Assembly (NCBI RefSeq): GCF_044704955.1
Contig: NC_091996.1
Span: 97,960,001 to 98,024,000 of the forward strand
DNA from: Pristiophorus japonicus
Lineage: Eukaryota
Direction of reading: 5' to 3'
DNA: 64,000 bases
In this document: in pieces, positions 6,097 through 64,000 of the stretch
Position numbering within the stretch: position 1 is the first letter of the stretch
Layout of the letters: the number at the start of each line of letters is the position of its first letter
The notes under the pieces: generated by a model
What the model was told of the DNA's origin: nothing
What the model saw: only the letters and a program-made list of their open reading frames with translations
The model's database searches: none
Made by a program: the position numbers and the translations under genes

Positions 6097-6139
6097 GTAA
6101 CTGTGACACTGTCGTTATCCATACAATTGTACCTTCCTT

Positions 6140-8605: not shown

Positions 8606-8616
8606 CCTAGTATCTC

Positions 8617-22495: not shown

Positions 22496-22553
22496 ATGGA
22501 CATGAAGTTCTCCAGTATCATCCGGATCAGCATCTGTTGGTTATTAATGAAAG
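22496..22553 (+). CDS. leader exon of V-type IgSF gene (MDMKFSSIIRISICWLLMK, phase 1)
   Basis: ATG(s), hydrophobic stretch and donor aaag|gtatgt. Phase-1 join gives ...LLMKG-GSVRG-EVHQRP, a typical split signal peptide. Confidence 0.65.
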
Positions 22554-26352: not shown

Positions 26353-26530
26353 TTCCCGCTGGTTGGGGAATCCTGGACTAGGGGCACAGTCTAAACAGTA
26401 GAGCCAGACGTTTCAGGAGTGACATTCGGAAACACTTCTACACACAGGGTGGGAGAGGTTTGGAACTCTCTTCATTGTGAATTACTTTGTGAAAGGTGTT
26501 ATATAAAGGCAGGTTCTTCTTATTTCCCAG

Positions 26531-28450: not shown

Positions 28451-28466
28451 CCTTCTTATCTCCCAG

Positions 28467-28517
28467 GTGATGTGAAGCATCAAGGAACAAACAAGTTCAA
28501 AGTCGCAGATCTGTCTG
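28467..28517 (+). CDS. IgSF gene stalk micro-exon B ((G)DVKHQGTNKFKVADLS)
   Basis: Acceptor cttccttcttatctcccag|, donor tctg|gtaagt, 51 nt, phase 1-1. Confidence 0.72.
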
Positions 28518-28941: not shown

Positions 28942-29385
28942 TTGGCTCAGTGCTAGCATTTTTACGTCTTGAGTGGGAAGGTTGTGGGTTCAATCCTGAC
29001 TCCAGGATTTGAGCACAGTTACTAGGCTGATGCTCCAGTGCTGATCTAAAGCAATGCTCCATTGTCAGGGCTGCCGTCCTCCAGATACGACATTAAATTG
29101 AGGGGCTGTCTGCCTGTTCAGGTGGAAGTAAAAGTTTCTACTTGAAGAAGAGCACAGATGTTTTCCCACTGTCCTGGCCAACGTTCTGCCCTCCACCAGC
29201 AGCACAGAAAACAAACCAGGTTGATTCATCATCTATCTCCTGTGCTGATTGTGGGATCTTGCTGTGCATAAATTGGCTGTCACATTTGCACGAGTAACAA
29301 TTGTGAATGCCATTCAAGACGAAGTCATGGTGAATCGATTTGGGACATTCTGGGGAAGTGAAAGGCACTATATAAAGGCAATGAC
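28942..29385 (+). mobile_element. older, near full-length DeuSINE (paralog of 28050..28450 by local duplication)
   Basis: Shares derived sequence gtgctgatct(g/a)aagcaatgct and upstream unique flank with the 28050 copy. Confidence 0.75.
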
Positions 29386-29403
29386 ATCCTTCTTATGTCC
29401 CAG

Positions 29404-29457
29404 GTAATGTGAAATATCCAGACACAAATGAGTCTACGGTCATCAAAGTTCTGCCCA
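29404..29457 (+). CDS. IgSF gene stalk micro-exon C ((G)NVKYPDTNESTVIKVLP)
   Basis: Acceptor ccttcttatgtcccag|, donor ccca|gtaagt, 54 nt, phase 1-1; carries an N-E-S sequon. Confidence 0.72.
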
Positions 29458-29722: not shown

Positions 29723-32700
29723 CTAATCCCACTGCCCCGCTCTCTCCCCATAGTCCTGTATCAATCCCCAAACTAATCCCACTGCCCCGCTCTCCCACCA
29801 TAGTCCTGTATCAATCTCCAAACTAATCCCACTGCCCTGCTCTCTCCCCATAGTCCTGTATCAATCCCCAAACTAATCCCACAGCCCCGCTCTCCCCCCA
29901 TGGCCCTGTATCAATCTCCAAACTAATCCCACTGCCCTGCTCTCTCCCCATAGTCCTGTATCAATCCCCAAACTAATCCCACTGCCCCACTCTCTCCCCA
30001 TAGCCCTGTATCAATCCCAAATTAATCCCACAGACCCACACTCTCCCCATAGTCCTGTATCAATCCGCAAACTAATCCCACTGCTCCGCTCTCTCCCCAT
30101 AGTCCTGTATCAATGCCCAAACTAATCCCACTTCCCCGCTCTCTCCCCATAGTCCTGTATCAATCCCCAAACTAATCCCACTGCCCCGTTCTCTCCCCAT
30201 AGCCCTGTATCAATCCCCAAACTAATCCCACTGCCACACACTCTCCCGATAGCCCTGTTTCAATCCCCAAACTAATCCCACTGCCCTGCTCTCTCCCCAT
30301 AGCCCTGTATCAATCCCAAACTAATCCCACTGCCCCGCTCTCTCCCCATAGCCCTGAATCAACCCCAAACTAATCCCACTGCCCCGCTCTCCCACCATAG
30401 TCCTGTATCAATCTCCAAACTAATCCCACTGCCCTGCTCTCTCCCCATCGTCCTGTATCAATCCCCAAACTAATCCCACTGCCCCGCTCTCCCCCCATGG
30501 CCCTGTATCAATCTCCAAACTAATCCCACTGCCCTGCTCTCTCCCCATAGTCCTGTATCAATCCCCAAACTAATCCCACTGCCCCACTCTCTCCCCATAG
30601 CCCTGTATCAATCCCAAATTAATCCCACAGACCCACACTCTCCCCATAGTCCTGTATCAATCCGCAAACTAATCCCACTGCTCCGCTCTCTCCCCATAGT
30701 CCTTTATCAATGCCCAAACTAATCCCACTTCCCCGCTCTCTCCCCATAGTCCTGTATCAATCCCCAAACTAATCCCACTGCCCCGTTCTCTCCCCATAGC
30801 CCTGTATCAATCCCCAAACTAATCCCACTGCCACACACTCTCCCGATAGCCCTGTTTCAATCCCCAAACTAATCCCACTGCCCTGCTCTCTCCCCATAGC
30901 CCTGTATCAATCCCAAACTAATCCCACTGCCCCGCTCTCTCCCCATAGCCCTGAATCAACCCCAAACTAATCCCACTGCCCCGCTCTCTCCCCATAGCCC
31001 TGTATCAATCCCCAAACTAATCCCACTGCCCCGCTCTCTCCCCATAGCCTTGTATCAATCCCCAAACTAATCCCACTGCCCCGCTCTCTCCCCATAGTCC
31101 TGTATCAATCCCCAAACTAATCCCACTGCCCCGCTCTCTCCCCATAGCCCTGTATCAATGCCAAACTAATCCCACTGCCCCGCTCTCTCCCCATAGCCCT
31201 GTATCAATCCCAAACTAATCCCACTGCCCCGCTCTCTCCCCATAGCACTGTATCAAACCCCAAACTAATCCCACTGCTCTGCTCTGTCCCCATAGCCCTG
31301 TATCAATCACCAAACTAATCCCACAGCCCCGCGCTCTCCCCATAACCCTGTATCAATCCCCAAACTAACCCCACTGCCCCGCTCTCTCCCCATAGCCCTG
31401 TATCAATCCCAAACTAATCTCACTGCCCCACTCTCTCCCCATAGCCCTGTAACAATCCCCAAACTAATCCCACTGCCCCACTCTCTCCCCATAGTCCTGT
31501 ATCAATCCCCAAACTAATCCCACAGCCCCAATCTCTCCCCATAGCCCTGTATCAATAACAAACTAATCCCACTGCCCCGCTCTCTCCCCACAGCCCTGTA
31601 CCAATCCCCAAACTAATCCCACTGCCCCACTCTCTCCCCATAGCACTGTATCAATCCCCAAACTAATCCCACTGCTCCGCTCTCCCCATAGCCCTGCATC
31701 AATCCCCAAACTAATCCTACTGCCCCGCTCTCTCCCCATAGCCCTGTATCAATCCCCAAACAAATCCCACTGCCCCACTCTCTACACATAGCCCTGTTTC
31801 AATTCCCAAACTAATCCCACTGCCCCGTTCTCTCCGCATACCCCTGTATCAATCGCCAAACTAATACCACTGCCGCGCTCTCTCCCCATAGTCCTGTATC
31901 AATCCCCAAACTAATCCCACTGCCCCACTCTCTCCCCATTGTCCTGTATCAATCCCCAAACTAATCCCACTGCCCCACTCTCTCCCCATAGCCCTGTATC
32001 AATCCCCAAACTAATCCCACTGCCCCGCTCTCTCCCCACAGCCCTGTATCAATCCCCAAACTAATCCCACTGCCCCGCTCTCTCCCCATAGTCCTGTATC
32101 AATCCCCAAACTAATCCCACTGCCCCGCTCTCTCCCCATAGCCCTGTCTCAATCACAAACTAATCCCACTGCCCCACTCTCTCCCCATAGTCCTGTATCA
32201 ATCCCCAAACTAATCCCACTGCCCCGCTCTCTCCCCAAAATCCTGTATCAATCCCCAAACTAATCCCACTGCCCCGCTCTCTCCCCATAGCCCTGTATCA
32301 ATCCCCAAACTAATCCCACTGCCCCGCTCTCGCCCCATACACCTGTATCAATCCCCAAACTAATCCCACTGCCCCGCTGTCTCCCCATAGCCCTGTATCA
32401 ATCTCAAACTAATCCCATTGCCCCGCTCTCTCCCCATAGTCCTGTATTAATCCCCAAACTAACCCCCTGCCCCGCTCTCTCCCCATAGCCCTGTATCAAT
32501 CCCAAATTTTTCCCACTGCCCCGCTCTCTCCACATAGCCCTGTATCAATCCCAAACGAATCCCACTACCTCGCTCTCTCCCCAGAGCCCTGTATCAATCC
32601 CAAACTAATCCCACTGCCCCGCTCTCTCCCCATAGTCCTGTATCAATCCCCAAACGAATCCCACTGCCCCGCTCTCTCCCCATAGTCCTGTCTCAATCCC

Positions 32701-35700
32701 AAACTAATCCCACTGCCCCACTCTCTCCCCATAGCCCTGTACCAATCCCCAAACTAATCCCACTGCCCCACTTTCTCTCCATAGTCCTGTATCAATCCCC
32801 AAACTAATCCCACGGCCCCACCTCTCCCCATAGCCCTGTATCAATCTCAAACTAATCCCACTGCCCCGCTCTCTCCCCATAGTCCTGTATCAATCCCCAA
32901 ACTAATCCCACTGCCCCGCTCTCTCCGCATAGACCTGTATCAATCCCAAACTAATCCCACTGCCCCACGCTCTCCCCATAGCCCTGTACCAATCCCAAAC
33001 TAATCCCACTGCCCCACTCTCTCCCCATAGCCTTGTATCAATCCCCAAAATAATCCCACTGCCCCGCTCTCTCCCCACAGCCCTGTATCAATCCCAAACT
33101 AATCCCACTACCCCACTCTCTCCCCATAGCCCTGTATCAAGCCCCAAACTAATCCCACTGCTCCGCTCTCTCCCCATAGCCCTGTATCAATGCCCAAACT
33201 AATCCCACTGCACCGCTCTCTCCCCATAGCCCTGTATCAATCCCCAAACTAATCCCACTACCGCGCTCTCTCCCCATAGTCCTGTATCAATCCCCAAACT
33301 AATCTTACTGCCCCGCTCTCTCCCCATAGTCCTGTATCAATCCCTAAACTAATCCCACTGCCCCGCTCTCTCCCCATAGCCCTGTATCAATCCACAAACT
33401 AATCCCACTGCCCCACACTCTCCCGATAGCCCTGTATCAATCCCGAAACTAATCCAACTGCCCCGCACTCTCCCCATAGCCCTGTATCAATCCCAAACTA
33501 ATCCCACTGCCCCGCTCTCTCCCCATACACCTGTATCAATCCACAAACTAATCCCACTGCCGCACTCTCTCCCCATAGCCCTGTATCAATCCCAAACTAA
33601 TCCCACTGCACCGCTCTCTCCCCATAGTCCTGTTTCAATTCCCAAACTAATCCCACTGCCCCGCTCTCTCCCCATAGCCCTGTATCAATCCCCAAACTAA
33701 TCCCACAGCCCCGCACTCTTCCCATAGCACTGTATCAATCCCCAAACTAATCCCACTGCTCCGCTCTCTCCGCATAGCCCTGTATCAATCCCAAACTATT
33801 CCCACTGCCCCACTCTCTCCCCATAGCCCTGTATCAATCCCAAACTAATCCCACTGCCCCACTCTCTGCCCATAGCCTTGTATCAATCCCCAAAATAATC
33901 CCACTGCCCCGCTCTCTCCCCATAGCCCTGTATCAATCCCAAACTAATCCCACTGCCCCACTCTCTCCCCATAGCCCTGTATCAATCCCCAAACTAATCC
34001 CACAGCCCCAATCTCTCCCCATAGCCCTGTATCAATCACAAACTAATCCCACTGCCCCGCTCTCTCCCCATAGCCCTGTACCAATCCCCAAACTAATCCC
34101 ACTGCCCCACTCTCTCCCCATAGTCCTGTATCAATCCCGAAACTAATCCCACAGCCCCAATATCTCCCCATAGCACTGTATCAATCACAAACTAATCCCA
34201 CTGCACCGCTCTCTCCCCATCGTTCTGTATAAATCCCCAAACTAATCCCACTGCCCCACTCTCTCCCCATAGCCCTGTATCAATCCCCAAACTAATCCCA
34301 CTGCCCCGCACTCTCCCCATAGCACTGTATCAATCCCCAAACTAATCCCACTGCCCCGCTCTCTCCCCATAGCCCTGTATCAATCCCCAAACTAATCCCA
34401 CTGCCCCGCTCTCCCCATAGCCCTGCATCAATCCCCAAACTAATCCCACTGCCCCGTTCTCTCCCCATAGCCCTGCATCAATCCCCAAACAAATCCCACT
34501 GCTCCGCTCTCTCCCCATAGCCCTGTATCAATCCCCAAACTAATCCCACTGCCCCGCTCTCTCCCCATAGTCCTGTATCAATCCCCAAACAAATCCCACT
34601 GCCCCGCTCTCTCCCCATAGCCCTGTATCAATCCCCAAACTAATCCCACTGCCCCGCTCTCCCCATAGCCCTGCATCAATCCCCAAACTAATCCCACTGC
34701 CCCGTTCTCTCCCCATAGCCCTGTATCAATCCCCAAACTAATCCCACTGCCCCGCTGTCTCCCCATAGCCCTGTATCAATCTCAAACTAATCCCACTGCC
34801 CCGCTCTCTCCCCATATTCCTGTATCAATCCCCAAACTAATCCCACTGCCCCGCTCTCTCCCCATAGCCCTGTATCAATCCCAAACTAATCCCACTGCCC
34901 CGCTCTCTCCACTTAGCCGTGTATCAATCCCAAACTAATCCCACTACCCCGCTCTCTCCCCATAGCCCTGTATCAATCCCAAACTAATCCCACTGCCCCG
35001 CTCTCTCCCCATAATCCTGCATCAATCCCCAAACAAATCCCACTTCCCCGCTCCCTCCCCATAGCCCTGTATAAATCCCAAACTAATCCCACTGCCCCAC
35101 TCTCTCCCCATAGCCCTGTACCAATCCCCAAACTAATCCCACTGCCCCACTTTCTCTCCATAGTCCTGTATCAATCCCCAAACTAATCCCATGGCCCCAC
35201 TCTCTCCCCATAGCCCTGTATCAATCCCAAACTAATCCCACTGCACCGCTCTCTCCCCATAGTCCTGTATCAATCCCCAAACTAATCCCACTGCCCCGCT
35301 CTCTCCGCATAGACCTGTATCAATCCCAAACTAATCTCACAGCCCCACTCTCTCCCCATAGCCCTGTATCAATCCCAAACTAATCCCACTGCCCCACTCT
35401 CTCCCCATAGCCTTGTATCAATCCCCAAAATAATCCCACTGCCCCGCTCTCTCCCCATAGTCCTGTATCAATCCCCAAACTAATCCCACTGCCCCGCTCT
35501 CTCCGCATAGTCCTGTATCAATCCCAAACTAATCCCACTGCCCCGCTCTCTCCCCATAGCCCTGTATCAAGCCCCAAACTAATCCCACTGCTCCGCTCTC
35601 TCCCCATAGCCCTGTATCAATCCCTAAACTAATCCCACTGCCCCGCTCTCTCCCCATAGCCCTGTATCAATCCCCAAACGAATCCCACTGCCGCGCTCTC

Positions 35701-38700
35701 TCCCAATAGTGCTGTATCAATCCCCAAACTAATCCTACTGCCCCGCTCTCTCCCCATAGTCCTGTATCAATCTCTAAACTAATCCCACTGCCCCGCTCTC
35801 TCCCCATAGCCCTGTATCAATCCCCAAACTAATCCCACTGCCCCACACTCTCCCGATAGCCCTGTATCAATCCCCAAACTAATCCCACTGCCCCGCACTC
35901 TCCCCATAGCCCGGTATCAATCCCAAACTAATCCCACTGCCCCGCTCTCTCCCCATAGTCCTGTATCAATCCCCAAACTAATCCCACGACCCCGCTCTCT
36001 CCCCATAGTCCTGTATCAATCCCCAAACTAATCCCACTGCCCCGCTCTCTCCCCATAGTCCTGTATCAATCCTAAACTAATCCCACTGCACCGCTCTCTC
36101 CCCATAGTCCTGTTTCAATTCCCAAACTAATCCCACTGCCCCGCTCTCTCCCCATAGCCCTGTATCAATCCCCAAACTAATCCCACTGCCCCGCACTCTT
36201 CCCATAGCACTGTATCAATCCACAAACTAATCCCACTGCCCCGCTCTCTCCGCATAGCACTGTATCAATCCCAAACTATTCCCACTGCCCCACTCTCTCC
36301 CCATAGCCCTGTATCAATCCCAAACTAATCCCACTGCCCCACTCTCTGCCCATAGCCTTGTATCAATCCCCAAAATAATCCCACAGCCCCATTCTCTCCC
36401 CATAGCCCTGTATCAATCACAAACTAATCCCACTGCCCCGCTCTCTCCCCATAGCCCTGTACCAATCCCCAAACTAATCCCACTGCCCCACTCTCTCCCC
36501 ATAGTCCTGTATCAATCCCCAAACTAATCCCACAGCCCCAATCTCTCCCCATAGCCCTGTATCAATCACAAACTAATCCCACTGCACCGCTCTCTCCCCA
36601 TAGTTCTGTATAAATTCCCAAACTAATCCCACTGCCCCACTCTCTCCCCATAGCCCTGTATCAATCCCCAAACTAATCCCACTGCCCCGCACTGTCCCCA
36701 TAGCACGGTATCAATCCCGAAACTAATCCCACTGCCCCGCTCTCCCCATAGCCCTGCATCAATCCCCAAACTAATCCCACTGCCCCCCGCTCTCCCCATA
36801 GCCCTGTATCAATCCCCAAACTAATCCCACTGCCCCGCTCTCCCCATAGCCCTGCATCAATCCCCAAACTAATCCCACTGCCCCGTTCTCTCCCCATAGC
36901 CCTGTATCAATCCCCAAACTAATCCCACTGCCCCGCTCTCTCCCCATAGCCCTGTATCAATCCCCAAACTAATCCCACTGCCCCGCTCTCTCCCCATAGT
37001 CCTGTATCAATACCCAAACAAATCCCACTGCTCTGCTCTGTCCCCATAGCCCTGTATCAATCCCCAAACTAATCCCACAGCCCCGCGCTCTCCCCATAAC
37101 CCTGTATCAATCCCCAAACTAACCCCTCTGCCCCGCTTTCTCCCCATAGCCCTGTATCAATCCCAAACTAATCTCACTGCCCCACTCTCTCCCCATAGCC
37201 CTGTACCAATCCCCAAACTAATCCCACTGCCCCACTCTCTCCCCATAGTCCTGTATCAATCCCCAAACTAATCCCACAGCCCCAATCTCTCCCCATAGCC
37301 CTGTATCAATAACAAACTAATCCCACTGCCGCGCTCTCTCCCCATAGCCCTGTACCAATCCCCAAACTAATCGCACTGCCCCACTCTCTCCCCATAGTCC
37401 TGTATCAATCCCCAAACTAATCCCACAGCCCCAATCTCTCCCCATAGCCCTGTATCAATCACAAACTAATCCCACTGCTCCGCTCTCTCCCCATAGTCCT
37501 GTATCAATGCCCAAACTAATCCCACTTCCCCGCTCTCTCCCCATAGTCCTGTATCAATCCCCAAACTAATCCCACTGCCCCGTTCTCTCCCCATAGCCCT
37601 GTATCAATCCCCAAACTAATCCCACTGCCACACACTCTCCCGATAGCCCTGTTTCAATCCCCAAACTAATCCCACTGCCCTGCTCTCTCCCCATAGCCCT
37701 GTATCAATCCCAAACTAATCCCACTGCCCCGCTCTCTCCCCATAGCCCTGAATCAACCCCAAACTAATCCCACTGCCCCGCTCTCCCACCATAGTCCTGT
37801 ATCAATCTCCAAACTAATCCCACTGCCCTGCTCTCTCTCCATAGTCCTGTATCAATCCCCAAACTAATCCCACTGCCCCGCTCTCCCCCCATGGCCCTGT
37901 ATCAATCTCCAAACTAATCCCACTGCCCTGCTCTCTCCCCATAGTCCTGTATCAATCCCCAAACTAATCCCACTGCCCCACTCTCTCCCCATAGCCCTGT
38001 ATCAATCCCAAATTAATCCCACAGACCCACACTCTCCCCATAGTCCTGTATCAATCCGCAAACTAATCCCACTGCTCCGCTCTCTCCCCATAGTCCTGTA
38101 TCAATGCCCAAACTAATCCCACTTCCCCGCTCTCTCCCCATAGTCCTGTATCAATCCCCAAACTAATCCCACTGCCCCATTCTCTCCCCATAGCCCTGTA
38201 TCAATCCCCAAACTAATCCCACTGCCACACACTCTCCCGATAGCCCTGTTTCAATCCCCAAACTAATCCCACTGCCCTGCTCTCTCCCCAGAGCCCTGTA
38301 TCAATCCCAAACTAATCCCACTGCCCCGCTCTCTCCCCATAGCCCTGAATCAACCCCAAACTAATCCCACTGCCCCGCTCTCTCCCCATAGCCCTGTATC
38401 AATCCCCAAACTAATCCCACTGCCCCGCTCTCTCCCCATAGCCCTGTATCAATCCCCAAACTAATCCCACTGCCCCGCTCTCTCCCCATAGTTCTGTATC
38501 AATCCCCAAACTAATCCCACTGCCCCGCTCTCTCCCCATAGCCCTGTATCAATAACAAACTAATCCCACTGCCCCGCTCTCTCCCCACAGCCCTGTACCA
38601 ATCCCCAAACTAATCCCACTGCCCCACTCTCTCCCCATAGCACTGTATCAATCCCCAAACTAATCCCACTGCCCCGCTCTCCCCATAGCCCTGCATCAAT

Positions 38701-41700
38701 CCCCAAACTAATCCTACTGCCCCGCTCTCTCCCCATAGCCCTGTATCAATCCCCAAACAAATCCCACTGCCCCACTCTCTACACATAGCCCTGTTTCAAT
38801 TCCCAAACTAATCCCACTGCCCCATTCTCTCCGCATACCCCTGTATCAATCGCCAAACTAATACCACTGCCGCGCTCTCTCCCCATAGTCCTGTATCAAT
38901 CCCCAAACTAATCCCACTGCCCCACTCTCTCCCCATTGTCCTGTATCAATCCCCAAACTAATCCCACTGCCCCACTCTCTCCCCATAGCCCTGTATCAAT
39001 CCCCAAACTAATCCCACTGCCCCGCTCTCTCCCCACAGCCCTGTATCAATCCCCAAACTAATCCCACTGCCCCGCTCTCTCCCCATAGTCCTGTATCAAT
39101 CCCCAAACTAATCCCACTGCCCCGCTCTCTCCCCATAGCCCTGTCTCAATCACAAACTAATCCCACTGCCCCACTCTCTCCCCATAGTCCTGTATCAATC
39201 CCCAAACTAATCCCACTGCCCCGCTCTCTCCCCAAAATCCTGTATCAATCCCCAAACTAATCCCACTGCCCCGCTCTCTCCCCATAGCCCTGTATCAATC
39301 CCCAAACTAATCCCACTGCCCCGCTCTCGCCCCATACACCTGTATCAATCCCCAAACTAATCCCACTGCCCCGCTGTCTCCCCATAGCCCTGTATCAATC
39401 TCAAACTAATCCCATTGCCCCGCTCTCTCCCCATAGTCCTGTATTAATCCCCAAACTAACCCCCTGCCCCGCTCTCTCCCCATAGCCCTGTATCAATCCC
39501 AAATTTTTCCCACTGCCCCGCTCTCTCCACATAGCCCTGTATCAATCCCAAACTAATCCCACTACCTCGCTCTCTCCCCATAGCCCTGTATCAATCCCAA
39601 ACTAATCCCACTGCCCCGCTCTCTCCCCATAGTCCTGTATCAATCCCCAAACGAATCCCACTGCCCCGCTCTCTCCCCATAGTCCTGTCTCAATCCCAAA
39701 CTAATCCCACTGCCCCACTCTCTCCCCATAGCCCTGTACCAATCCCCAAACTAATCCCACTGCCCCACTTTCTCTCCATAGTCCTGTATCAATCCCCAAA
39801 CTAATCCCACGGCCCCACCTCTCCCCATAGCCCTGTATCAATCCCAAACTAATCCCACTGCCCCGCTCTCTCCCCATAGTCCTGTATCAATCCCCAAACT
39901 AATCCCACTGCCCCGCTCTCTCCGCATAGACCTGTATCAATCCCAAACTAATCCCACTGCCCCACTCTCTCCCCATAGCCCTGTACCAATCCCAAACTAA
40001 TCCCACTGCCCCACTCTCTCCCCATAGCCTTGTATCAATCCCCAAAATAATCCCACTGCCCCGCTCTCTCCCCACAGCCCTGTATCAATCCCAAACTAAT
40101 CCCACTACCCCACTCTCTCCCCATAGCCCTGTATCAAGCCCCAAACTAATCCCACTGCTCCGCTCTCTCCCCATAGCCCTGTATCAATGCCCAAACTAAT
40201 CCCACTGCACCGCTCTCTCCCCATAGCCCTGTATCAATCCCCAAACTAATCCCACTACCGCGCTCTCTCCCCATAGTCCTGTATCAATCCCCAAACTAAT
40301 CCTACTGCCCCGCTCTCTCCCCATAGTCCTGTATCAATCCCTAAACTAATCCCACTGCCCCGCTCTCTCCCCATAGCCCTGTATCAATCCCCAAACTAAT
40401 CCCACTGCCCCACACTCTCCCGATAGCCCTGTATCAATCCCCAAACTAATCCCACTGCCCCGCACTCTCCCCATAGCCCTGTATCAATCCCAAACTAATC
40501 CCACTGCCCCGCTCTCTCCCCATACACCTGTATCAATCCACAAACTAATCCCACTGCCGCACTCTCTCCCCATCGCCCTGTATCAATCCCAAACTAATCC
40601 CACTGCACCGCTCTCTCCCCATAGTCCTGTTTCAATTCCCAAACTAATCCCACTGCCCCGCTCTCTCCCCATAGCCCTGTATCAATCCCCAAACTAATCC
40701 CACAGCCCCGCACTCTTCCCATAGCACTGTATCAATCCCCAAACTAATCCCACTGCTCCGCTCTCTCCGCATAGCCCTGTATCAATCCCAAACTATTCCC
40801 ACTGCCCCACTCTCTCCCCATAGCCCTGTATCAATCCCAAACTAATCCCACTGCCCCACTCTCTGCCCATAGCCATGTATCAATCCCCAAAATAATCCCA
40901 CTGCCCCGCTCTCTCCCCATAGCCCTGTATCAATCCCAAACTAATCCCACTGCCCCACTCTCTCCCCATAGCCCTGTATCAATCCCCAAACTAATACCAC
41001 AGCGCCAATCTCTCCCCATAGCCCTGTATCAATCACAAACTAATCCCACTGCCCCGCTCTCTCCCCATAGCCCTGTACCAATCCCCAAACTAATCCCACT
41101 GCCCCACTCTCTCCCCATAGTCCTGTATCAATCCCGAAACTAATCCCACAGCCCCAATATCTCCCCATAGCCCTGTATCAATCCCCAAACTAATCCCACT
41201 GCCCCGCTCTCTCCCCATAGTCCTGTATCAATCCCCAAACAAATCCCACTGCCCCGCTCTCTCCCCATAGCCCTGTATCAATCCCCAAACTAATCCCACT
41301 GCCCCGCTCTCCCCATAGCCCTGCATCAATCCCCAAACTAATCCCACTGCCCCGTTCTCTCCCCATAGCCCTGTATCAATCCCCAAACTAATCCCACTGC
41401 CCCGCTGTCTCCCCATAGCCCTGTATCAATCTCAAACTAATCCCACTGCCCCGCTCTCTCCCCATATTCCTGTATCAATCCCCAAGCTAATCCCACTGCC
41501 CCGCTCTCTCCCCATAGCCCTGTATCAATCCCAAACTCATCCCACTGCCCCGCTCTCTCCACTTAGCCGTGTATCAATCCCAAACTAATCCCACTACCCC
41601 GCTCTCTCCCCATAGCCCTGTATCAATCCCAAACTAATCCCACTGCCCCGCTCTCTCCCCATAATCCTGTATCAATCCCCAAACAAATCCCACTTCCCCG

Positions 41701-50700: not shown

Positions 50701-53700
50701 CTAATCCCACTGCACCGCTCTCTCCCCATAGTCCTGTTTCAATTCCCAAACTAATCCCACTGCCCCGCTCTCTCCCCATAGCCCTGTATCAATCCCAAAA
50801 CTAATCCCACTGCCCCGCACTCTTCCCATAGCACTGTATCAATCCCCAAACTAATCCCACTGCCCCGCTCTCTCCGCATAGCCCTGTATCAATCCCAAAC
50901 TATTCCCACTGCCCCACTCTCTCCCCATAGCCCTGTATCAATCCCAAACTAATCCCACTGCCCCAATCTTTGCCCATAGCCTTGTATCAATCCCCAAAAT
51001 AATCCCACTGCCCCGCTCTCTCCCCATAGCCCTGTATCAATCCCAAATTAATCCCACTTCCCCACTCTCTCCCAATAGCCCTGTATCAATCCCCAAACTA
51101 ATCCCACAGCCCCAATCTCTCCCCATAGCCCTGTATCAATCACAAACTAATCCCACTGCCCCGCTCTCTCCCCATAGCCCTGTACCAATCCCCAAACTAA
51201 TCCCACTGCCCCACTCTCTCCCCATAGTCCTGTATCAATCCCCAAACTAATCCCACAGCCCCAATCTCTCCCCATAGCCCTGTATCAATCACAAACTAAT
51301 CCCACTGCACCGCTCTCTCCCCAGAGTTCTGTATAAATCACCAAACTAATCCCACTGCCCCACTCTCTCCCCATAGCCCTGTATCAATCCCCAAACTAAT
51401 CCCACTGCCCCGCACTCTCCCCATAGCACTGTATCAATCCCCAAACTAATCCCACTGCCCCGCTCTCTCCCCATAGTCCTGTATCAATCCCCAAACAAAT
51501 GCCACTGCTCTGCTCTGTCCCCATAGCCCTGTATCAATCCCCAAACTAATCCCACTGCCCCACTCTCCCCATAGCCCCGTATCAATCCCCAAACTAACCC
51601 CACTGCCCCGCTTTCTCCCCATAGCCCTGTATCAATCCCAAACTAATCTCACTGCCCCACTCTCTCCCCATAGCCCTGTACCAATCCCCAAACTAATCCC
51701 ACTGCCCCACTCTCTCCCCATAGTCCTGTATCGATCCCCAAACTAATCCCACAGCCCCAATCTCTCCCCATAGCCCTGTATCAATAACAAACTAATCCCA
51801 CTGCCCCGCTCTCTCCCCATAGCCCTGTACCAATCCCCAAACTAATCCCACTGCCCCACTCTCTCCCCATAGTCCTGTATCAATCCCCAAACTAATCCCA
51901 CAGCCCCAATCTCTCCCCATAGCCCTGTATCAATCACAAACTAATCCCACTGCACCGCTCTCTCCCCATAGTTCTGTATAAATCCCCAAACTAATCCCAC
52001 TGCCCCACTCTCTCCCCATAGCCCTGTATCAATCCCCAAACTAATCCCACTGCCCCGCACTCTCCCCATAGCCCTGTATCAATCCCCAAACTAATCCCAC
52101 TGCCCCGCTCTCTCCCCATAGCCCTGTATCAATCCCCAAACAAATCCCACTGCCACACTCTCTACCCATAGCCCTGTTTCAATTCCCAAACTAATCCCAC
52201 TGCCCCGTTCTCTCCCCATAGCCCTGTATCAATCACAAACTAATCCCACTGCACCGCTCTCTCCCCATAGTTCTGTATAAATCACCAAACTAATCCCACT
52301 GCCCCACTCTCTCCCCATAGCCCTGTATCAATCCCCAAACTAATCCCACTGCCCCGCTCTCCCCATAGCCCTGCATCAATCCCCAAACTAATCCCACTGC
52401 CCCGCTCTCTCCCCATAGTCCTGTATCAATCCCAAACAAATCCCACTGCTCTGCTCTGTCCCCATAGCCCTGTATCAATCCCCAAACTAATCCCACAGCC
52501 CCGCGCTCTCCCCATAACCCTGTATCAATCCCCAAACTAACCCCACTGCCCCGCTTTCTCCCCATAGCCCTGTATCAATCCCAAACTAATCTCACTGCCC
52601 CACTCTCTCCCCATAGCCCTGTACCAATCCCCAAACTAATCCCACTGCCCCACTCTCTCCCCATAGTCCTGTATCAATCCCCAAACTAATCCCACAGCCC
52701 CAATCTCTCCCCATAGCCCTGTATCAATAACAAACTAATCCCGCTGCCCCGCTCTCTCCCCATAGCCCTGTACCAATCCCCAAACTAATCCCACTGCCCC
52801 ACTCTCTCCCCATAGTCCTGTATCAATCCCCAAACTAATCCCACAGCCCCAATCTCTCCCCATAGCCCTGTATCAATCACAAACTAATCCCACTGCACCG
52901 CTCTCTCCCCATAGTTCTGTATAAATCCCCAAACTAATCCCACTGCCCCACTCTCTCCCCATAGCCCTGTATCAATCCCCAAACTAATCCCACTGCCCCG
53001 CACTCTCCCCATAGCACTATATCAATCCCCAAACTAATCCCACTGCCCCGCTCTCCCCAGAGCCCTGCATCAATCCCCAAACTAATCCCACTGCCCCGCT
53101 CTCTCCCCATAGCCCTGTATCAATCCCCAAACTAATCCCACTGCCCCACTCTCTACCCATAGCCCTGTTTCAATTCCCAAACTAATCCCACTGCCCCGTT
53201 CTATCCCCACAGCCCTGTATCAATCCCCAAACTAATCCCACTGCCCCGCACTCTCCCCATAGCACTGTATCAATCCCCAAACTAATCCCACTGCCCCGCT
53301 CTCCCCAGAGCCCTGCATCAATCCCCAAACTAATACCACTGCCCCGCTTTCTCCCCATAGCCCTGTACCAATCCCCAAACTAATCCCACTGCCCCACTCT
53401 CTCCCCATTGTCCTGTATCAGTCGCCTAACTAATCCCACTGCCCCACTCTCTCCCCATAGCCCTGTATCAATCCCAAACTAATCCCACTGCCCCGCTCTC
53501 TCCCCATAGTCCTGTATCAATCCCCAAACTAATCCCACTGCCCCGCTCTCTCCCCATAGCCCTGTATCAATCCCCAAACTAATCCCACTGCCCCGCTCTC
53601 TCCCCATAGCCCTGTATCAATCCCCAAACTAATCCCACTGCCCCGCTCTCTCCCCATAGTCCGGTATCAATCGCCAAACTAATCCCACTGCCCCGCTCTC

Positions 53701-56700
53701 TCCCCATAGCCCTGTCTCAATCACAAACTAATCCCACTGCCCCACTCTCTCCCCATACTCCTGTATCAATACCCAAACTAATCCCACTGCATCGCTCTCT
53801 CCCCATAGCCCTGTATCAATCCCCAAACTAATCCCACTGCCCCGCTCTCGCCCCATAGTCCTGTATCAATACCCAAACTAATCCCACTGCCCCGCTCTCT
53901 CCCCATAGTCCTGTATCAATCCCCAAACGAATCCCACTGCCCCGCTCTCTCCCCATAGTCCTGTCTCAATCCCAAACTAATCCCACTGCCCCACTCTCTC
54001 CCCATAGCCCTGTACCAATCCCCAAACTAATCCCGCTGCCCCACTTTCTCTCCATAGTCCTGTATCAATCCCCAAACTAATCCCACGGCCCCACTCTCTC
54101 CCCATAGCCCTGTATCAATCCCAAACTAATCCCACTGCACCGCTCTCTCCCCATAGTCCTGTATCAATCCCCAAACTAATCCCACTGCCCCGCTCTCTCC
54201 GCATAGACCTGTATCAATCCCAAACTAATCCCACTGCCCCACTCTCTCCCCATAGCCCTGTATCAATCCCAAACAAATCCCACTGCCCCACTCTCTCCCC
54301 ATAGCCTTGTATCAATCCCCAAAATAATCCCACTGCCCCGCTCTCTCCCCATAGCCCTGTATCAATCCCAAACTAATCCCACTGCCCCACTCTCTCCCCA
54401 TAGTCCTGTATCAATCCCCAAACTAATCCTACTGCCCCGCTCTCTCCCCATAGTCCTGTATCAATCCCTAAACTAATCCCACTGCCCCGCTCTCCCCATA
54501 GCCCTGCATCAATCCCCAAACTAATCCCACTGCCCCGTTCTCTCCCCATAGCCCTGTATCAATCCCCAAACTAATCCCACTGCCCCGCTCTCTCCCCATA
54601 GCCCTGTATCAATCCCCAAACTAATCCCACTGCCCCGCTCTCTCCCCATAGTCCTGTATCAATCCCCAAACAAATCCCACTGCCCCGCACTCTCCCCATA
54701 GCACTGTATCAATCCCCAGACTAATCCCACTGCCCCGCTCTCCCCAGAGCCCTGCATCAATCCCCAAACTAATCCCACTGCCCCGCACTCTCCCCATAGC
54801 CCTGTATCAATCCCCAAACAAATCCCACTGCCCCACTCTCTACCCATAGCCCTGTTTCAATTCCCAAACTAATCCCACTGCCCCGTTCGTTCCCCATAGC
54901 CCTGTATCAATCACAAACTAATCCCACTGCACCGCTCTCTCCCCATAGTTCTGTATAAATCACCAAACTAATCCCACTGCCCCACTCTCTCCCCATAGCC
55001 CTGTATCAATCCCCAAACTAATCCCACTGCCCCGCACTCTCCCCATAGCACTGTATCAATCCCCAAACTAATCCGACTGCCCCGCTCTCCCCATAGCCCT
55101 GCATCAATCCCCAAACTAATCCCACTGCCCCGCTCTCTACCCATTGCCCTGTATCAATCCCCAAACTAATCCCACTGCCCCGCTCTCCCCATAGCCCTGC
55201 ATCAATCCCCAAACTAATCCCACTGCCCCGCTCTCTCCCCATAGTCCTGTATCAATCCCCAAACAAATCCCACTGCTCTGCTCTGTCCCCATAGCCCTGT
55301 ATCAATCCCCAAACTAATCCCACAGCCCCGCGCTCTCCCCATAACCCTGTATCAATCCCTAAACTAACCCCACTGCCCTGCTTTCTCCCCATAGCCCTGT
55401 ATCAATCCCAAACTAATCTCACTGCCCCACTCTCTCCCCATAGCCCTGTACCAATCCCCAAACTAATCCCACTGCCCCACTCTCTCCCCATAGTCCTGTA
55501 TCAATCCCCAAACTAATCCCACAGCCCCAATCTCTCCCCATAGCCCTGTATCAATAACAAACTAATCCCGCTGCCCCGCTCTCTCCCCATAGCCCTGTAC
55601 CAATCCCCAAACTAATCCCACTGCCCCACTCTCTCCCCATAGTCCTGTATCAATCCCCAAACTAATCCCACAGCCCCAATCTCTCCCCATAGCCCTGTAT
55701 CAATCACAAACTAATCCCACTGCACCGCTCTCTCCCCATAGTTCTGTATAAATCCCCAAACTAATCCCACTGCCCCACTCTCTCCCCATAGCCCTGTATC
55801 AATCCCCAAACTAATCCCACTGCCCCGCACTCTCCCCATAGCACTGTATCAATCCCCAAACTAATCCCACTGCCCCGCTCTCCCCAGAGCCCTGCATCAA
55901 TCCCCAAACTAATCCCACTGCCCCGCTCTCTCCCCATAGCCCTGTATCAATCCCCAAACTAATCCCACTGCCCCACTCTCTACCCATAGCCCTGTTTCAA
56001 TTCCCAAACTAATCCCACTGCCCCGTTCTCTCCCCATAGCCCTGTATCAATCACAAACTAATCCCACTGCACCGCTCTCTCCCCATAGTTCTGTATAAAT
56101 CCCCAAACTAATCCCACTGCCCCACTCTCTCCCCACAGCCCTGTATCAATCCCCAAACTAATCCCACTGCCCCGCACTCTCCCCATAGCACTGTATCAAT
56201 CCCCAAACTAATCCCACTGCCCCGCTCTCCCCAGAGCACTGCATCAATCCCCAAACTAATACCACTGCCCCGCTTTCTCCCCATAGCCCTGTACCAATCC
56301 CCAAACTAATCCCACTGCCCCACTCTCTCCCCATTGTCCTGTATCAGTCGCCTAACTAATCCCACTGCCCCACTCTCTCCCCATAGCCCTGTATCAATCC
56401 CAAACTAATCCCACTGCCCCGCTCTCTCCCCATAGTCCTGTATCAATCCCCAAACTAATCCCACTGCCCCGCTCTCTCCCCATAGCCCTGTATCAATCCC
56501 CAAACTAATCCCACTGCCCCGCTCTCTCCCCATAGCCCTGTATCAATCCCCAAACTAATCCCACTGCCCCGCTCTCTCCCCATAGTCCGGTATCAATCGC
56601 CAAACTAATCCCACTGCCCCGCTCTCTCCCCATAGTCCTGTCTCAATCACAAACTAATCCCACTGCCCCACTCTCTCCCCATACTCCTGTATCAATACCC

Positions 56701-59700
56701 AAACTAATCCCACTGCATCGCTCTCTCCCCATAGCCCTGTATCAATCCCCAAACTAATCCCACTGCCCCGCTCTCGCCCCATAGTCCTGTATCAATCCCA
56801 AACTAATCCCACTGCCCCGCTCTCTCCCCATAGTCCTGTATCAATCCCCAAACGAATCCCACTGCCCCGCTCTCTCCCCATAGTCCTGTCTCAATCCCAA
56901 ACTAATCCCACTGCCCCACTCTCTCCCCATAGCCCTGTACCAATCCCCAAACTAATCCCGCTGCCCCATTTTCTCTCCATAGTCCTGTATCAATCCCCAA
57001 ACTAATCCCACGGCCCCACTCTCTCCCCATAGCCCTGTATCAATCCCAAACTAATCCCACTGCACCGCTCTCTCCCCATAGTCCTGTATCAATCCCCAAA
57101 CTAATCCCACTGCCCCGCTCTCTCCGCATAGACCTGTATCAATCCCAAACTAATCCCACTGCCCCACTCTCTCCCCATAGCCCTGTATCAATCCCAAACA
57201 AATCCCACTGCCCCACTCTCTCCCCATAGCCTTGTATCAATCCCCAAAATAATCCCACTGCCCCGCTCTCTCCCCATAGTCCTGTATCAATCCCCAAACT
57301 AATCCTACTGCCCCACTCTCTCCCCATAGTCCTGTATCAATCCCTAAACTAATCCCACTGCCCCGCTCTCCCCATAGCCCTGCATCAATCCCCAAACTAA
57401 TCCCACTGCCCCGTTCTCTCCCCATAGCCCTGTATCAATCCCCAACCTAATCCCACTGCCCCGCTCTCTCCCCATAGCCCTGTATCAATCCCCAAACTAA
57501 TCCCACTGCCCCGCTCTCTCCCCATAGTCCTGTATCAATCCCCAAACAAATCCCACTGCTCTGCTCTGTCCCCATAGCCCTGTATCAATCCCCAAACTAA
57601 TCCCACTGCCCCGCACTCTCCCCATAGCACTGTATCAATCCCCAAACTAATCCCACTGCCCCGCTCTCCCCATAGCCCTGCCTCAATCCCCAAACTAATC
57701 CCACTGCCCCGTTCTCTCCCCATAGCCCTGTATCAATCCCCAAACTAATCCCACTGCCCCACTCTCTCCCCATAGCCCTGTATCAATCCTAAACTAATCC
57801 CACTGCACCGCTCTCTCCCCATAGTCCTGTTTCAATTCCCAAACTAATCCCACTGCCCCGCTCTCCCCATAGCCCTGTATCAATCCCCAAACTAATCCCA
57901 CTGCCCCGCACTCTTCCCATAGCACTGTATCAATCCCCAAACTAATCCCACTGCCCCGCTCTCTCCGCATAGCCCTGTATCAATCCCAAACTATTCCCAC
58001 TGCCCCACTCTATCCCCATAGCCCTGTATCAATCCCAAACTAATCCCACTGCCCCAATCTTTGCCCATAGCCTTGTATCAATCCCCAAAATAATCCCACT
58101 GCCCCGCTCTCTCCCCATAGCCCTGTATCAATCCCAAATTAATCCCACTTCCCCACTCTCTCCCCATAGCCCTGTATCAATCCCCAAACTAATCCCACAG
58201 CCCCAATCTCTCCCCATAGCCCTGTATCAATCACAAACTAATCCCACTGCCCCGCTCTCTCCCCATAGCCCTGTACCAATCCCCAAACTAATCCCACTGC
58301 CCCACTCTCTCCCCATAGTCCTGTATCAATCCCCAAACTAATCCCACAACCCCAATCTCTCCCCTTAGCCCTGTATCAATCACAAACTAATCCCACTGCA
58401 CCGCTCTCTCCCCGTAGTTCTGTATAAATCACCAAACTAATCCCACTGCCCCACTCTCTCCCCATAGCCCTGTATCAATCCCCAAACTAATCCCACTGCC
58501 CCGCACTCTCCCCATAGCACTGTATCAATCCCCAAACTAATCCCACTGCCCCGGTCTCCCCATAGCACTGCATCAATCCTCAAACTAATCCCACTGCCCC
58601 GCTCTCTACCCATAGCCCTGTATCAATCCCCAAACTAATCCCACTGCCCCGCTCTCCCCATAGCCCTGCATCAATCCCCAAACTAATCCCACTGCCCCGC
58701 TCTCTCCCCATAGTCCTGTATCAATCCCCAAACAAATCCCACTGCTCTGCTCTGTCCCCATAGCCCTGTATCAATCCCCAAACTAATCCCACAGCCCCGC
58801 GCTCTCCCCATAACCCTGTATCAATCCCCAAACTAACCCCACTGCCCCGCTTTCTCCCCATAGCCCTGTATCAATCCCAAACTAATCTCACTGCCCCACT
58901 CTCTCCCCATCGCCCTGTACCAATCCCCAAACTAATCCCACTGCCCCACTCTCTCCCCATAGTCCTGTATCAATCCCCAAACTAATCCCACAGCCCCAAT
59001 CTCTCCCCATAGCCCTGTATCAATAACAAACTAATCCCACTGCCCCGCTCTCTCCCCATAGCCCTGTACCAATCCTCAAACTAATCCCACTGCCCCACTC
59101 TCTCCCCATAGTCCTGTATCAATCCCCAAACTAATCCCACAGCCCCAATCTCTCCCCATAGCCCTGTATCAATCACAAACTAATCCCACTGCACCGCTCT
59201 CTCCCCATAGTTCTGTATAAATCCCCAAACTAATCCCACTGCCCCACTCTCTCCCCATAGCCCTGTATCAATCCCCAAACTAATCCCACTGCCCCGCACT
59301 CTCCCCACAGCACTGTATCAATCCCCAAACTAATCCCACTGCCCCGCTCTCCCCAGAGCCCTGTTTCAATTCCCAAACTAATCCCACTGCCCCGTTCTCT
59401 CCCCATAGCCCTGTATCAATCACAAACTAATCCCACTGCACCGCTCTCTCCCCATAGTTCTGTATAAATCACCAAACTAATCCCACTGCCCCACTCTCTC
59501 CCCATAGCCCTGTATCAATCCCCAAACTAATCCCACTGCCCCGCACTCTCCCCATAGCACTGTATCAATCCCCAAACTAATTCCACTGCCCCGCTCTCCC
59601 CATAGCCCTGCATCAATCCCCAAACTAATCCCACTGCCCCGCTCTCGACCCATAGCCCTGTGTCAATCCCCAAACTAATCCCACTGCCCCGCTCTCCCCA

Positions 59701-62700
59701 TAGCCCTGCATCAATCCCCAAACTAATCCCACTGCCCCGCTCTCTCCCCATAGTCCTGTATCAATCCGCAAACAAATCCCACTGCTCTGCTCTGTCCCCA
59801 TAGCCCTGTATCAATCCCCAAACTAATCCCACTGCCCCGCTTTCTCCCCATAGCCCTGTATCAATCCCAAACTAATCTCACTGCCCCACGCTCTCCCCAT
59901 AGCCCTGTACCAATCCCCAAACTAATCCCACTGCCCCACTCTCTCCCCATAGTCTTGTATAAATCCCCAAACTAATCCCACAGCCCCGCACTCTCCCCAT
60001 AGCCCTGTATCAATAACAAACTAATCCCGCTGCCCCGCTCTCTCCCCATAGCCCTGTACCAATCCCCAAACTAATCCCACTGCCCCACTCTCTCCCCATA
60101 GTCCTGTATCAATCCCCAAACTAATCCCACAGCCCCAATCTCTCCCCATAGCCCTGTATCAATCACAAACTAATCCCACTGCACCGCTCTCTCCCCATAG
60201 TTCTATATAAATCCCCAAACTAATCCCACTGCCCCACTCTCTCCCCATAGCCATGTATCAATCCCCAAACTCATCCCACTGCCCCGCACTCTCCCCATAG
60301 CACTGTATCAATCCCCAAACTAATCCCACTGCCCCGCTCTCCCCAGAGCCCTGCATCAATCCCCAAACTAATCCCACTGCCCCGCTCTCTCCCCATAGCC
60401 CTGGATCAATCCCCAAACAAATCCCACTGCCCCACTCTCTACCCATAGCCCTGTTTCAATTCCCAAACTAATCCCACTGCCCCGTTCTCTCCCCATAGCC
60501 CTGTATCAATCACAAACTAATCCAACTGCACCGCTCTCTCCCCATAGTTCTGTATAAATCCCCAAACTAATCCCACTGCCCCACTCTCTCCCCATAGCCC
60601 TGTATCAATCCCCAAACTAATCCCACTGCCCCGCACTCTCCCCATAGCACTGTATCAATCCCCAAACTAATCCCACTGCCCCGCTCTCCGCAGAGCCCTG
60701 CATCAATCCCCAAACTAATCCCACTGCCCCGCTTTCTCCCCATAGCCCTGTACCAATCCCCAAACTAATCCCACTGCCCCACTCTCTCCCCATTGTCCTG
60801 TATCAGTCACCTAACTAATCCCACTGCCCCACTCTCTCCCCATAGCCCTGTATCAATCCCAAACTAATCCCACTGCCCCGCTCTCTCCCCATAGTCCTGT
60901 ATCAATCCCCAAACTAATCCCACTGCCCCGCTCTCTCCCCATAGCCCTGTATCAATCCCCAAACTAATCCCACTGCCCCGCTCTCTCCCCATAGCCCTGT
61001 ATCAATCCCCAAACTAATCCCACTGCCCCGCTCTCTCCCCATAGTCCGGTATCAATCGCCAAACTAATCCCACTGCCCCGCTCTCTCCCCATAGCCCTGT
61101 CTCAATCACAAACTAATCCCACTGCCCCACTCTCTCCCCATAGTCCTGTATCAATACCCAAACTAATCCCACTGCATCGCTCTCTCCCCATAGCCCTGTA
61201 TCTATCCCCAAACTAATCCCACTGCCCCGCTCTCGCCCCATAGTCCTGTATCAATCCCCAAACTAATCCCACTGCCCCGCTCTCTCCCCATAGTCCTGTA
61301 TCAATCCCCAAATGAATACCACTGCCCCGCTCTCTCCCCATAGTCCTGTCTCAATCCCAAACTAATCCCACTGCCCCACTCTCTCCCCATAGCCCTGTAC
61401 CAATCCCCAAACTAATCCCGCTGCCCCACTTTCTCTCCATAGTCCTGTATCAATCCCCAAACTAATCCCACGGCCCCACTCTCTCCCCATAGCCCTGTAT
61501 CAATCCCAAACTAATCCCACTGCACCGCTCTCTCCCCATAGTCCTGTATCAATCCCCAAACTAATCCCACTGCCCCGCTCTCTCCGCATAGACCTGTATC
61601 AATCCCAAACTAATCCCACTGCCCCACTCTCTCCCCATAGCCCTGTATCAATCCCAAACAAATCCCACTGCCCCACTCTCTCCCCATAGCCTTGTATCAA
61701 TCCCCAAAATAATCCCACTGCCCCGCTCTCTCCCCATAGCCCTGTATCAATCCCAAACTAATCCCACTGCCCCACACTCTCCCCATAGTCCTGTATCAAT
61801 CCCCAAACTAATCCTACTGCCCCGCTCTCTCCCCATAGTCCTGTATCAATCCCTAAACTAATCCCACTGCCCCGCTCTCCCCATAGCCCTGCATCAATCC
61901 CCAAACTAATCCCACTGCCCCGTTCTCTCCCCATAGCCCTGTATCAATCCCCAAACTAATCCCACTGCCCCGCTCTCTCCCCATAGCCCTGTATCAATCC
62001 CCAAACTAATCCCACTGCCCCGCTCTCTCCCCATAGCCCTGTATCAATCCCCAAACTAATCCCACTGCCCCGCTCTCTCCCCATAGCCCTGTATCAATCC
62101 CCAAACTAATCCCACTGCCCCGCTCTCTCCCCATAGTCCTGTATCAATCCCCAAACAAATCCCACTGACCCGCTCTCTCCCCATAGCCCTGTATCAATCC
62201 CCAAACTAAACCCACTGCCCCGCTCTCCCCATAGACCTGCATCAATCCCCAAACTAATCCCACTGCCCCGTTCTCTCCCCATAGCCCTGTATCAATCCCC
62301 AAACTAATCCCACTGCCCCGCTGTCTCCCCATAGCCCTGTATCAATCTCAAACTAATCCCACTGCCCTGTTCTCTCCCCATAGTCCTGTATCAATCCCCA
62401 AACTAATCCCACTGCCCCGCTCTCTCCCCATAGCCCTGTATCAATCCCAAACTAATCCCACTGCCCCGCTCTCTCCACATAGCCCTGTATCAATCCCAAA
62501 CTAATCCCACTACCCCGCTCTCTCCCCATAGCCCCGTATCAATCCCAAACTAATCCCACTGCCCCGCTCTCTCCCCATAATCCTGTATCAATCCCCAAAC
62601 GAATCCGACTGCCCCGCTCTCTCCCCATAGTCCTGTCTCAATCCCAAACTAATCCCACTGCCCCACTCTCTCCCCATAGCCCTGTACCAATCCCCAAACT

Positions 62701-64000
62701 AATCCCACTGCCCCACTTTCTCTCCATAGTCCTGTATCAATCCCCAAACTAATCCCACGGCCCCACTCTCTCCCCATAGCCCTGTATCAATCCCAAACTA
62801 ATCCCACTGCACCGCGCTCTCCCCATAGTCCTGTATCAATCCCCAAGCTAATCCCACTGCCCCGCTCTCTCCGCATAGACCTTTATCAATCCCAAACTAA
62901 TCCCACTGCCCCACTCTCTCCCCATAGCCCTGTATCAATCCCAAACTAATCCCACTGCCCCACTCTCTCCCCATAGCCTTGTATCAATCCCCAAAATAAT
63001 CCCACTGCCCCGCTCTCTCCCCATAGCCCTGTATCAATCCCAAACTAATCCCACTACCCCACTCTCTCCCCATAGCCCCGTATCAAGCCCCAAACTAATC
63101 CCACTGCTCCGCTCTCTCCCCATAGCCCTGTATCAATCCCCAAACTAATCCCACTGCCCCGCTCTCTCCCCATAGCCCTGTATCAATCCACAAACTTATC
63201 CCACTGCCGCGCTCTGTCCCCATAGTCCTGTATCAATCCCCAAACTAATCCTACTGCCCCGCTCTCTCCCCATAGTCCTGTATCAATCTCTAAACTAATC
63301 CCACTGCCCCGCTCTCTCCCCATAGCCCTGTATCAATCCCCAAACTAATCCCACTGCCCCACACTCTCCCGATAGCCCTGTATCAATCCCCAAACTAATC
63401 CCACTGCCCCGCACTCTCCCCATAGCCCTGTATCAATCCCAAACTAATCCCACTGCCCCGCTCTCTCCCCATAGTCCTGTATCAATCCCCAAACTAATCC
63501 CACTGCCCCACTCTCTCCCCATAGCCCTGCATCAATCCGAAACTAATCCCACTGCACCGCTCTCTCCCCATAGTCCTGTTTCAATTCCCAAACTAATCCC
63601 ACTGCCCCGCTCTCCCCATAGCCCTTTATCAATCCCCAAACTAATCCCACTGCCCCGCACTCTTCCCATAGCACTGTATCAATCCCCAAACTAATCCCAC
63701 TGCCCCGCTCTCTCAGCATAGCCCTGTATCAATCCCAAACTATTCCCACTGCCCCACTCTCTCCCCATAGCCTTGTATCAATCCCCAAACTAACCCCACT
63801 GCCCCGCTTTCTCCCCATAGCCCTGTATCAATCACAAACTAATCTCACTGCCCCACTCTCTCCCCATAGCCCTGTACCAATCCCCAAACTAATCCCACTG
63901 CCCCGCACTCTCCCCATAGCCCTGTATCAATCCCAAACTAATCCCACTGCCCCGCTCTCTCCCCATAGTCCTGTATCAATCCCCAAACTAATCCCACTGC
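29723..64000. repeat. ~50-bp satellite array, ~690 monomers, runs off the window end (aaactaatcccactgccccgctctctccccatagccctgtatcaatcccc)n
   Basis: Continuous head-to-tail 48-50-bp monomers with point variants; I saw no unique insertions. Confidence 0.97.

Follow-up and report, generated by a model that had tools for sequence, protein, structure and literature searches.

Organization of the locus

The window, the whole stretch of 64,000 nt that was analysed, corresponds to C20:97,960,001-98,024,000 in a 5.9-Gb assembly and lies about 1.7 Mb from the contig end. For positions above 64,000, the window numbering was carried on into the next 200 kb. The features needed here are the following, with TM for transmembrane.

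22496..22553, + strand: predicted leader exon, from ATG to a phase-1 donor; in frame, similar on visual comparison to the N-termini of P0002 and P0004
23975..24331, + strand: Ig V-set exon (P0001); Pfam V-set, E=1e-10; single copy in the genome
26531..26584, + strand: stalk micro-exon A, 54 nt, phase 1-1, with AG/GT borders
28467..28517, + strand: stalk micro-exon B, 51 nt, phase 1-1, with acceptor context and in frame
29404..29457, + strand: stalk micro-exon C, 54 nt; the predicted last intron begins with its donor, GTAAGT at 29458
29723..64000 and on to C20:98,127,764, strand ".": 50-bp tandem array, followed by a 3.4-kb (CT)n tract, the TM exon and AATAAA
29723..29753, + strand: acceptor-like part of the first array unit, with CTAAT (A at 29726), a C-rich tract and TAG; score -0.34
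29774..29776, + strand: TAA at which the hypothetical product of a join between exon C and the first unit would end; this product has 198 aa and lacks a TM segment
C20:98,127,924-98,131,309: (CT)n tract, 3.4 kb; its higher-order period is 122 bp and it ends 185 nt upstream of the TM exon
C20:98,131,495-98,131,730 (171,495 in the continued numbering): TM exon, phase 1, 3.7 kb past the array, with a hydrophobic segment and a short tail

The leader, the V domain, the stalk and the TM exon, the last judged from its hydrophobic sequence and homology, lie in one frame. The six-exon model encodes 269 aa with no internal stop, and each predicted exon is intact, as are its splice sites. The V exon is 55-66% identical to four shark proteins; its next best match within its own genome is 34% identical. 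With sharks as the source of all four homologues, the genome is presumably a shark's too. The four homologues have 1-3 stalk repeats and then a TM tail, and the TM exon, which is open and single copy, is 45, 43, 31 and 31% identical to the C-termini of all four. We predict that the gene encodes an unbroken V-set Ig receptor, a type I membrane protein with a single V domain. The records of the homologues are labelled uncharacterized, and among solved structures (PDB) only distant matches to CD276 and TCR-alpha V were found (best E=5e-8).

The initial annotation had proposed, as one of two options, a giant intron leading to a TM exon further downstream, and had suggested a search for a phase-1 TM exon beyond 64000. 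Such an exon is present, in frame and conserved as described above; it supports the giant intron and rules out truncation of the gene by the satellite. An AATAAA is found at about C20:98,132,309 (172,309), around 0.8 kb downstream of the TM acceptor. The predicted last intron, between exon C and the TM exon, is 142,037 nt long and is best read as being filled by the array.

Within the window, 29723 to 64000 is a tandem array with a 50-bp period (691 copies, 90% matches, Tandem Repeats Finder), in agreement with the satellite of about 690 monomers described earlier. Of the limits given there, the start at 29723 held, 265 nt past the micro-exon C donor, whose GT is at 29458, but the window end at 64000 is not the array end. 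The array runs for 138,042 nt from its start (about 2,784 units), of which 103,764 nt lie beyond the window, to position 167,764 in the continued numbering. Its sequence is without an N gap. Exactly repeated 200-mers account for 66% of the array bases, there are blocks of 7 kb and 16.5 kb, and exact runs reach 4.2 kb (the longest exact repeat) among units that are about 90% alike. These exact block duplications point to growth by block duplication, recently, or in part to assembly. The array has about 0.9 CpG per unit, and its template strand has 2,202 G4-like motifs by pattern count only.

The acceptors of micro-exons A, B and C each lie at the 3′ end of a dispersed repeat (26370-26530, 28307-28466 and 29244-29403), which we take to be SINE-like. 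In blastn, the matches to this repeat end 2-5 nt from the micro-exons. A unit of repeat plus exon seems to have been duplicated to give the three micro-exons, so that T-rich, repeat-derived acceptors are likely in use in the Ig gene.

Origin and distribution of the 50-bp unit

The minus strand of the unit corresponds to the C-terminus and stop codon of a LINE ORF2. At one locus (L084), an array of the 50-bp unit is collinear with ORF2-like sequence, and the unit supplies the last residues and the stop. This locus matched LINE ends near the window down to E=2e-12 in tblastx, and in blastn also; one neighbouring LINE copy carries an RVT_1 match (E=4e-26). The flanks of three other loci (L041, L044 and L045) show a similar LINE context by eye. 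We assume the LINE to be of the CR1 type from the motif at its ORF2 end. By these comparisons, the unit evidently derives from 50 bases at the end of ORF2 in a CR1-type LINE, the CR1 label being given by motif, and it lies antisense in the intron.

The exact 33-nt junction between units was found 27,340 times on the forward and 25,163 times on the reverse strand of the genome, 52,503 in all, with 0 matches for the control. The host-gene array holds about one twentieth as many units. Arrays of the unit were seen on C1, C2, C3 and C20, with head-to-tail arrangement at many loci. The 50-bp unit is a dispersed, genome-wide minisatellite family, and the idea of an array specific to the Ig receptor gene is ruled out by the number of junction matches. 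Because the unit comes from the ORF2 end and was spread as a minisatellite, its acceptor-like string is the reverse complement of a LINE coding end. The LINE origin, with the genome-wide family, accounts for the motif without selection for splicing.

By eye, the AG was kept in 2 of 8 solitary copies, one of which (L216) is in a plain LINE-end context. A control search for solitary LINE ends in two EGF-repeat genes, 400 kb in total, gave a single match at up to 8 mismatches. In the titles and abstract openings of the literature searched, mostly outside subscription journals, neither this repeat family nor a tandem array of acceptors was described.

Several other repeats were observed. A second array of the unit lies 21 kb past the TM exon on the same strand (C20:98,152,287-98,158,877, 133 copies), where no host gene was recognised. 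An array near a contig end at C3:331,562,776-331,589,633 spans about 27 kb with about 500 matches; among the matches listed, many arrays are near the ends of C1-C3. Intron 1 of the upstream gene holds a separate tandem repeat of 42-47 bp (window 4972-5784). In blastn it is about 72-75% similar to the LINE segment from which the unit comes, and its consensus is without the acceptor AG. Pieces resembling the reverse transcriptase of an LTR retrotransposon were seen by eye at L024:4248-5021.

The acceptor-like motif

The first unit carries, on the sense strand, CTAAT, a 42-nt AG-free zone, 14 pyrimidines in 16 positions and a TAG whose last base is 29753, with the candidate branch A placed at -28 relative to the splice point. 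The elements reported in the initial annotation (CTAAT, an AG-free spacer, a C-rich tract and TAG) are thus all present. Exon C joined to 29754 would, as stated there, read VLP-ILYQSPN-stop and give a 198-aa protein without a TM segment.

For the array as a whole, we used four loose criteria, chosen after the unit had been seen: YAG, CTRAY at -18 to -40, at least 13 pyrimidines of 16, and an AG-free stretch of at least 20 nt. All four were found at 506 of the 723 array AGs within the window and at 2,091 of 2,847 in the whole array. The motif itself was therefore borne out, but not in each monomer as had been claimed. YAG was seen at 2,763 of the 2,847 AGs, and CTRAY preceded 2,406 of them by 18-40 nt, mostly at -28. 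Only 411 of 20,000 letter shuffles of the unit (2%) had all four features, so the acceptor resemblance is above the chance level for its composition, with post hoc criteria. Among the 109 real acceptors taken from this genome, all four were present in just 13; the criteria therefore capture the textbook consensus and not the make-up of real sites.

The two AG columns of the unit (0.97 and 0.94) are no more constant than its other columns. There was no sign of selection on the AG within the array units, the copies being non-independent and the CTAAT columns being the anchor of the alignment.

Strength compared with real acceptors

As reference acceptors, we took those of EGF_CA exons whose first codon starts with the last G of the intron, so that the tract sequence was not used in their choice. 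Two starts without AG were omitted and 109 acceptors were kept, all preceding EGF exons. They were used to train a position matrix from -25 to -3, scored leave-one-out, which ignores the branch-point motif.

The tract of the unit is poor in T, with 3 T of 16 and no TT. Real acceptors have a median of 9 T at -20 to -5; 107 of the 109 have more than 3 T and only 2 have 3 or fewer. The same count, 3 T of 16, was found in 1,641 of the 2,091 qualifying units. The first unit scored -0.34, at the 6th percentile of the 109 real acceptors, and the true TM acceptor scored 6.4, at the 66th percentile. None of the 2,847 array AGs scored at or above the TM acceptor in this matrix; 201 reached the 10th percentile and 4 the 25th. 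AGs that reach the 25th percentile occur at 0.03 per kb in the array; two control genes of 200 kb each have about 2 per kb. With a GC-matched model (n=40), the unit was at the 8th percentile and 1 array AG was above the TM site. Under the trained model, 5,858 of 20,000 shuffles of the unit had an AG scoring as well.

When C and T were treated as equal in a purine/pyrimidine model, the unit rose to the 98th percentile. The earlier description of the sites as canonical thus holds for pyrimidine content and fails at the 6th-8th percentile once C and T are distinguished; the unit does not pass as a functional U2-type 3′ splice site by the test of a U-rich tract. Such a T-poor tract should bind U2AF poorly. 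The branch motif of the unit is better than most, since CTRAY was found in only 21 of the 109 real acceptors.

The (CT)n tract contains 17 AGs that beat the TM acceptor by tract score alone (7.5-10.1) and just 1 CTRAY. A GTGAG lies directly 3′ of this tract. In the search for reference acceptors, about 45 EGF_CA exons of near-equal score were seen within 200 kb at C15:84.85-85.05 Mb, which suggests a recent tandem expansion of exons.

Partner signals for exon definition

Most splice sites in vertebrates are described as recognised across exons, with both ends near-equal in weight (PMC3203598). Sequences that match the consensus and are unused are reported to be more numerous than real sites (PMC3640928). 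The 138-kb array has no GTRAG and 3 GTRA as possible donors. It has no AGGT, which rules out recursive (ratchet) splicing within it. Only 3 AATAAA were found in the array. The first is 67 kb past donor C and is followed by further C-rich units, with no U/GU-rich element. There are also 71 TATAAA variants, and the first one inspected is in a C-rich context. The array units thus fail the test of a partner signal, whether a donor or a poly(A) site, for exon definition. With its AG only 296 nt from donor C, the first unit is plausibly the only one that could pair across a short intron, and its product would still be without a near poly(A) site.

Arrays of the unit in other genes

For 26 other array loci, taken from the first matches listed on C1-C3, exons were sought in about 10 kb of flank on either side. 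Candidate exons were present on both sides at 8 loci, of which 7 have the array in sense and 1 in antisense orientation (two-sided p=0.07). At 3 loci an exon was seen on one side only (1 sense, 2 antisense), for an overall count of 8 sense of 11 (p=0.23). No recognisable exons were found within about 10 kb at the remaining 15 of 26.

Three sense loci have collinear Pfam matches on both sides of the array:

Nramp gene: 14 units, 11 qualifying
Thyroglobulin-repeat gene: 20 units, 18 qualifying
Tyrosine phosphatase gene: 11 units, 7 qualifying

At three further sense loci the Pfam match was one-sided (ankyrin, HMG box and helicase C). Another, with about 139 units, is without a Pfam match; its host is presumably a ferlin-like gene. 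The antisense locus with exons on both sides is in an SH2 gene. There is no sign that sense orientation is depleted among the two-sided loci (7 of 8), contrary to what is expected of a potent acceptor. These arrays have 11-140 units and are 20-250 times smaller than the 2,784-unit array, so a cumulative effect is not settled by them.

Decoys or functional acceptors

We consider it probable that the units of the 138-kb LINE-derived array in the predicted last intron are weak decoys, mostly skipped to the TM exon. The units would have been inherited as weak decoys from the LINE end and amplified in tandem, and splicing would pass over them across the 142-kb intron to give the membrane form. No unit would be definable as an internal exon, for want of a donor, or as a last exon, with almost no poly(A) signal. 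The true TM acceptor would be favoured by its better tract and by the AATAAA that follows it. We infer skipping from the expected poor binding of U2AF to the T-poor tract and from the lack of exon definition of the units. CU-binding repressors such as PTBP1 may help, a lead taken by analogy from PMC6108849. Several observations count against this reading: the branch motif of the unit is better than that of most real sites, its rank is at the 98th percentile when C and T are equal, the first unit is close to donor C, and alphaCP/PCBP proteins are reported to be able to activate C-rich tracts (PMC4797308).

A non-adaptive attenuation of the gene, which we regard as unlikely, would begin from the same array: more than 2,000 weak copies, a G-rich template and CpG might together divert or stall transcripts, so that little full-length receptor is made, and mis-spliced RNAs, stopping after 7 codons, would be degraded. 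The 2,091 qualifying sites, the G4-like template motifs and the CpG content fit this, as does the report of read depth dropping across giant satellite introns in Drosophila (PMC11207136), and the exact multi-kb duplications would mean growth too recent for selection to show. However, the six predicted exons and splice sites are intact, the score of each site is low, sense arrays are present in other genes, and the G4 figure is a pattern count. We think it highly improbable that the array is instead partly false in length or continuity through misassembly, with a shorter intron or a misplaced join to the TM exon. The exactly repeated 200-mers, the 7-kb and 16.5-kb blocks and the exact runs are what such an error could produce; against it, there is no N gap, the units are about 90% alike with no exact repeat above 4.2 kb, and the single-copy V and TM exons have the expected order, strand and phase.

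The other option in the initial annotation was a splice trap whose product would be secreted or silenced. In its regulated form, exon C would be joined to an early unit across the 296-nt intron with PCBP-type activation, and a 198-aa secreted V isoform would rise with array length. The first unit is indeed the first site past donor C with all four features and it has a good branch motif; the product would retain leader, V domain and stalk and end after 7 new residues, and repeat units of ABCA7 are reported to be usable as splice sites (PMC5954066). We nevertheless judge this form very improbable. The first array AATAAA is far from the donor and in an unfavourable context, a TM tail ends all four homologues found, and the same unit occurs at many unrelated loci. 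The trap in general found no support in the sequence, given the weak T-poor tracts, the absence of donors and the near absence of poly(A) signals; it is also disfavoured by the same-orientation arrays in other genes, with the reserve on their size given above. Among proteins of 64-207 aa, a weak search for short isoforms, given no weight here, had 0 of 21 candidates at E<=1e-6. A wider version, in which the LINE-derived minisatellite is a length-tuned splice trap to a secreted or degraded 198-aa form and acts in graded fashion across many shark genes, seems to us quite improbable.

Comparison with known systems

The VNTR in intron 18 of ABCA7 is similar in being an intronic tandem repeat beside an exon, with a splice motif in its unit and a C-rich region (PMC5954066). 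As described there, its unit starts with a donor, one 25-bp unit was shown to be retained and alleles reach about 10.7 kb, whereas the present motif is a candidate acceptor in a 138-kb, LINE-derived array. The Drosophila Y genes kl-3 and kl-5 are likewise coding genes split by a giant tandem-repeat intron (PMC6508621; PMC11207136). The present case differs in being a vertebrate gene with a 50-bp retrotransposon-derived unit that carries an acceptor-like motif. Pseudo sites and LINE cryptic sites repressed by MATR3/PTBP1 also match the consensus and are normally unused (PMC3640928; PMC6108849), but here about 2,800 head-to-tail copies of one putative site have arisen. Tracts activated by alphaCP/PCBP resemble those of the array in being C-rich and U-poor before AG, yet they precede cassette exons with donors (PMC4797308). 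Expansion of CR1-like LINEs in shark introns is described for the whale shark, in which more than 88% of genes carry CR1-like elements (10.1101/443036); in contrast to those dispersed copies, a 50-bp piece has been amplified in tandem here.

If the units are decoys that are mostly skipped, splicing of a vertebrate gene passes over about 2,100 consensus-like acceptors in tandem, and the locus is a natural test of decoys that sets U content and exon definition against branch-point quality. The family would be a case of a minisatellite that arose around the stop codon of a LINE and spread through the genome, and it forms a series within one genome, from 11 to 2,784 units. If early units were used as a trap, repeat length would be a dial for membrane versus soluble forms of the receptor.

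Neighbouring features

Further V-set exons, 30-34% identical to P0001, lie near the gene at C20:97,931,507-97,934,370 (- strand) and 98,735,455 (+ strand). Upstream, a four-exon gene on the + strand (window 4401-10529) has a weak Peptidase_M23 match (E=7e-4) and is presumably LECT2-like. Between the two genes, window 13234-15625 is a complex repeat of 2.4 kb in which TGACATCA and CACGTG words are frequent; we take these words to be similar to transcription-factor sites. Directly downstream of the receptor gene is a 2.5-kb inverted duplication with 96% identity (C20:98,132,474-98,134,936 and 98,141,655-98,144,103).
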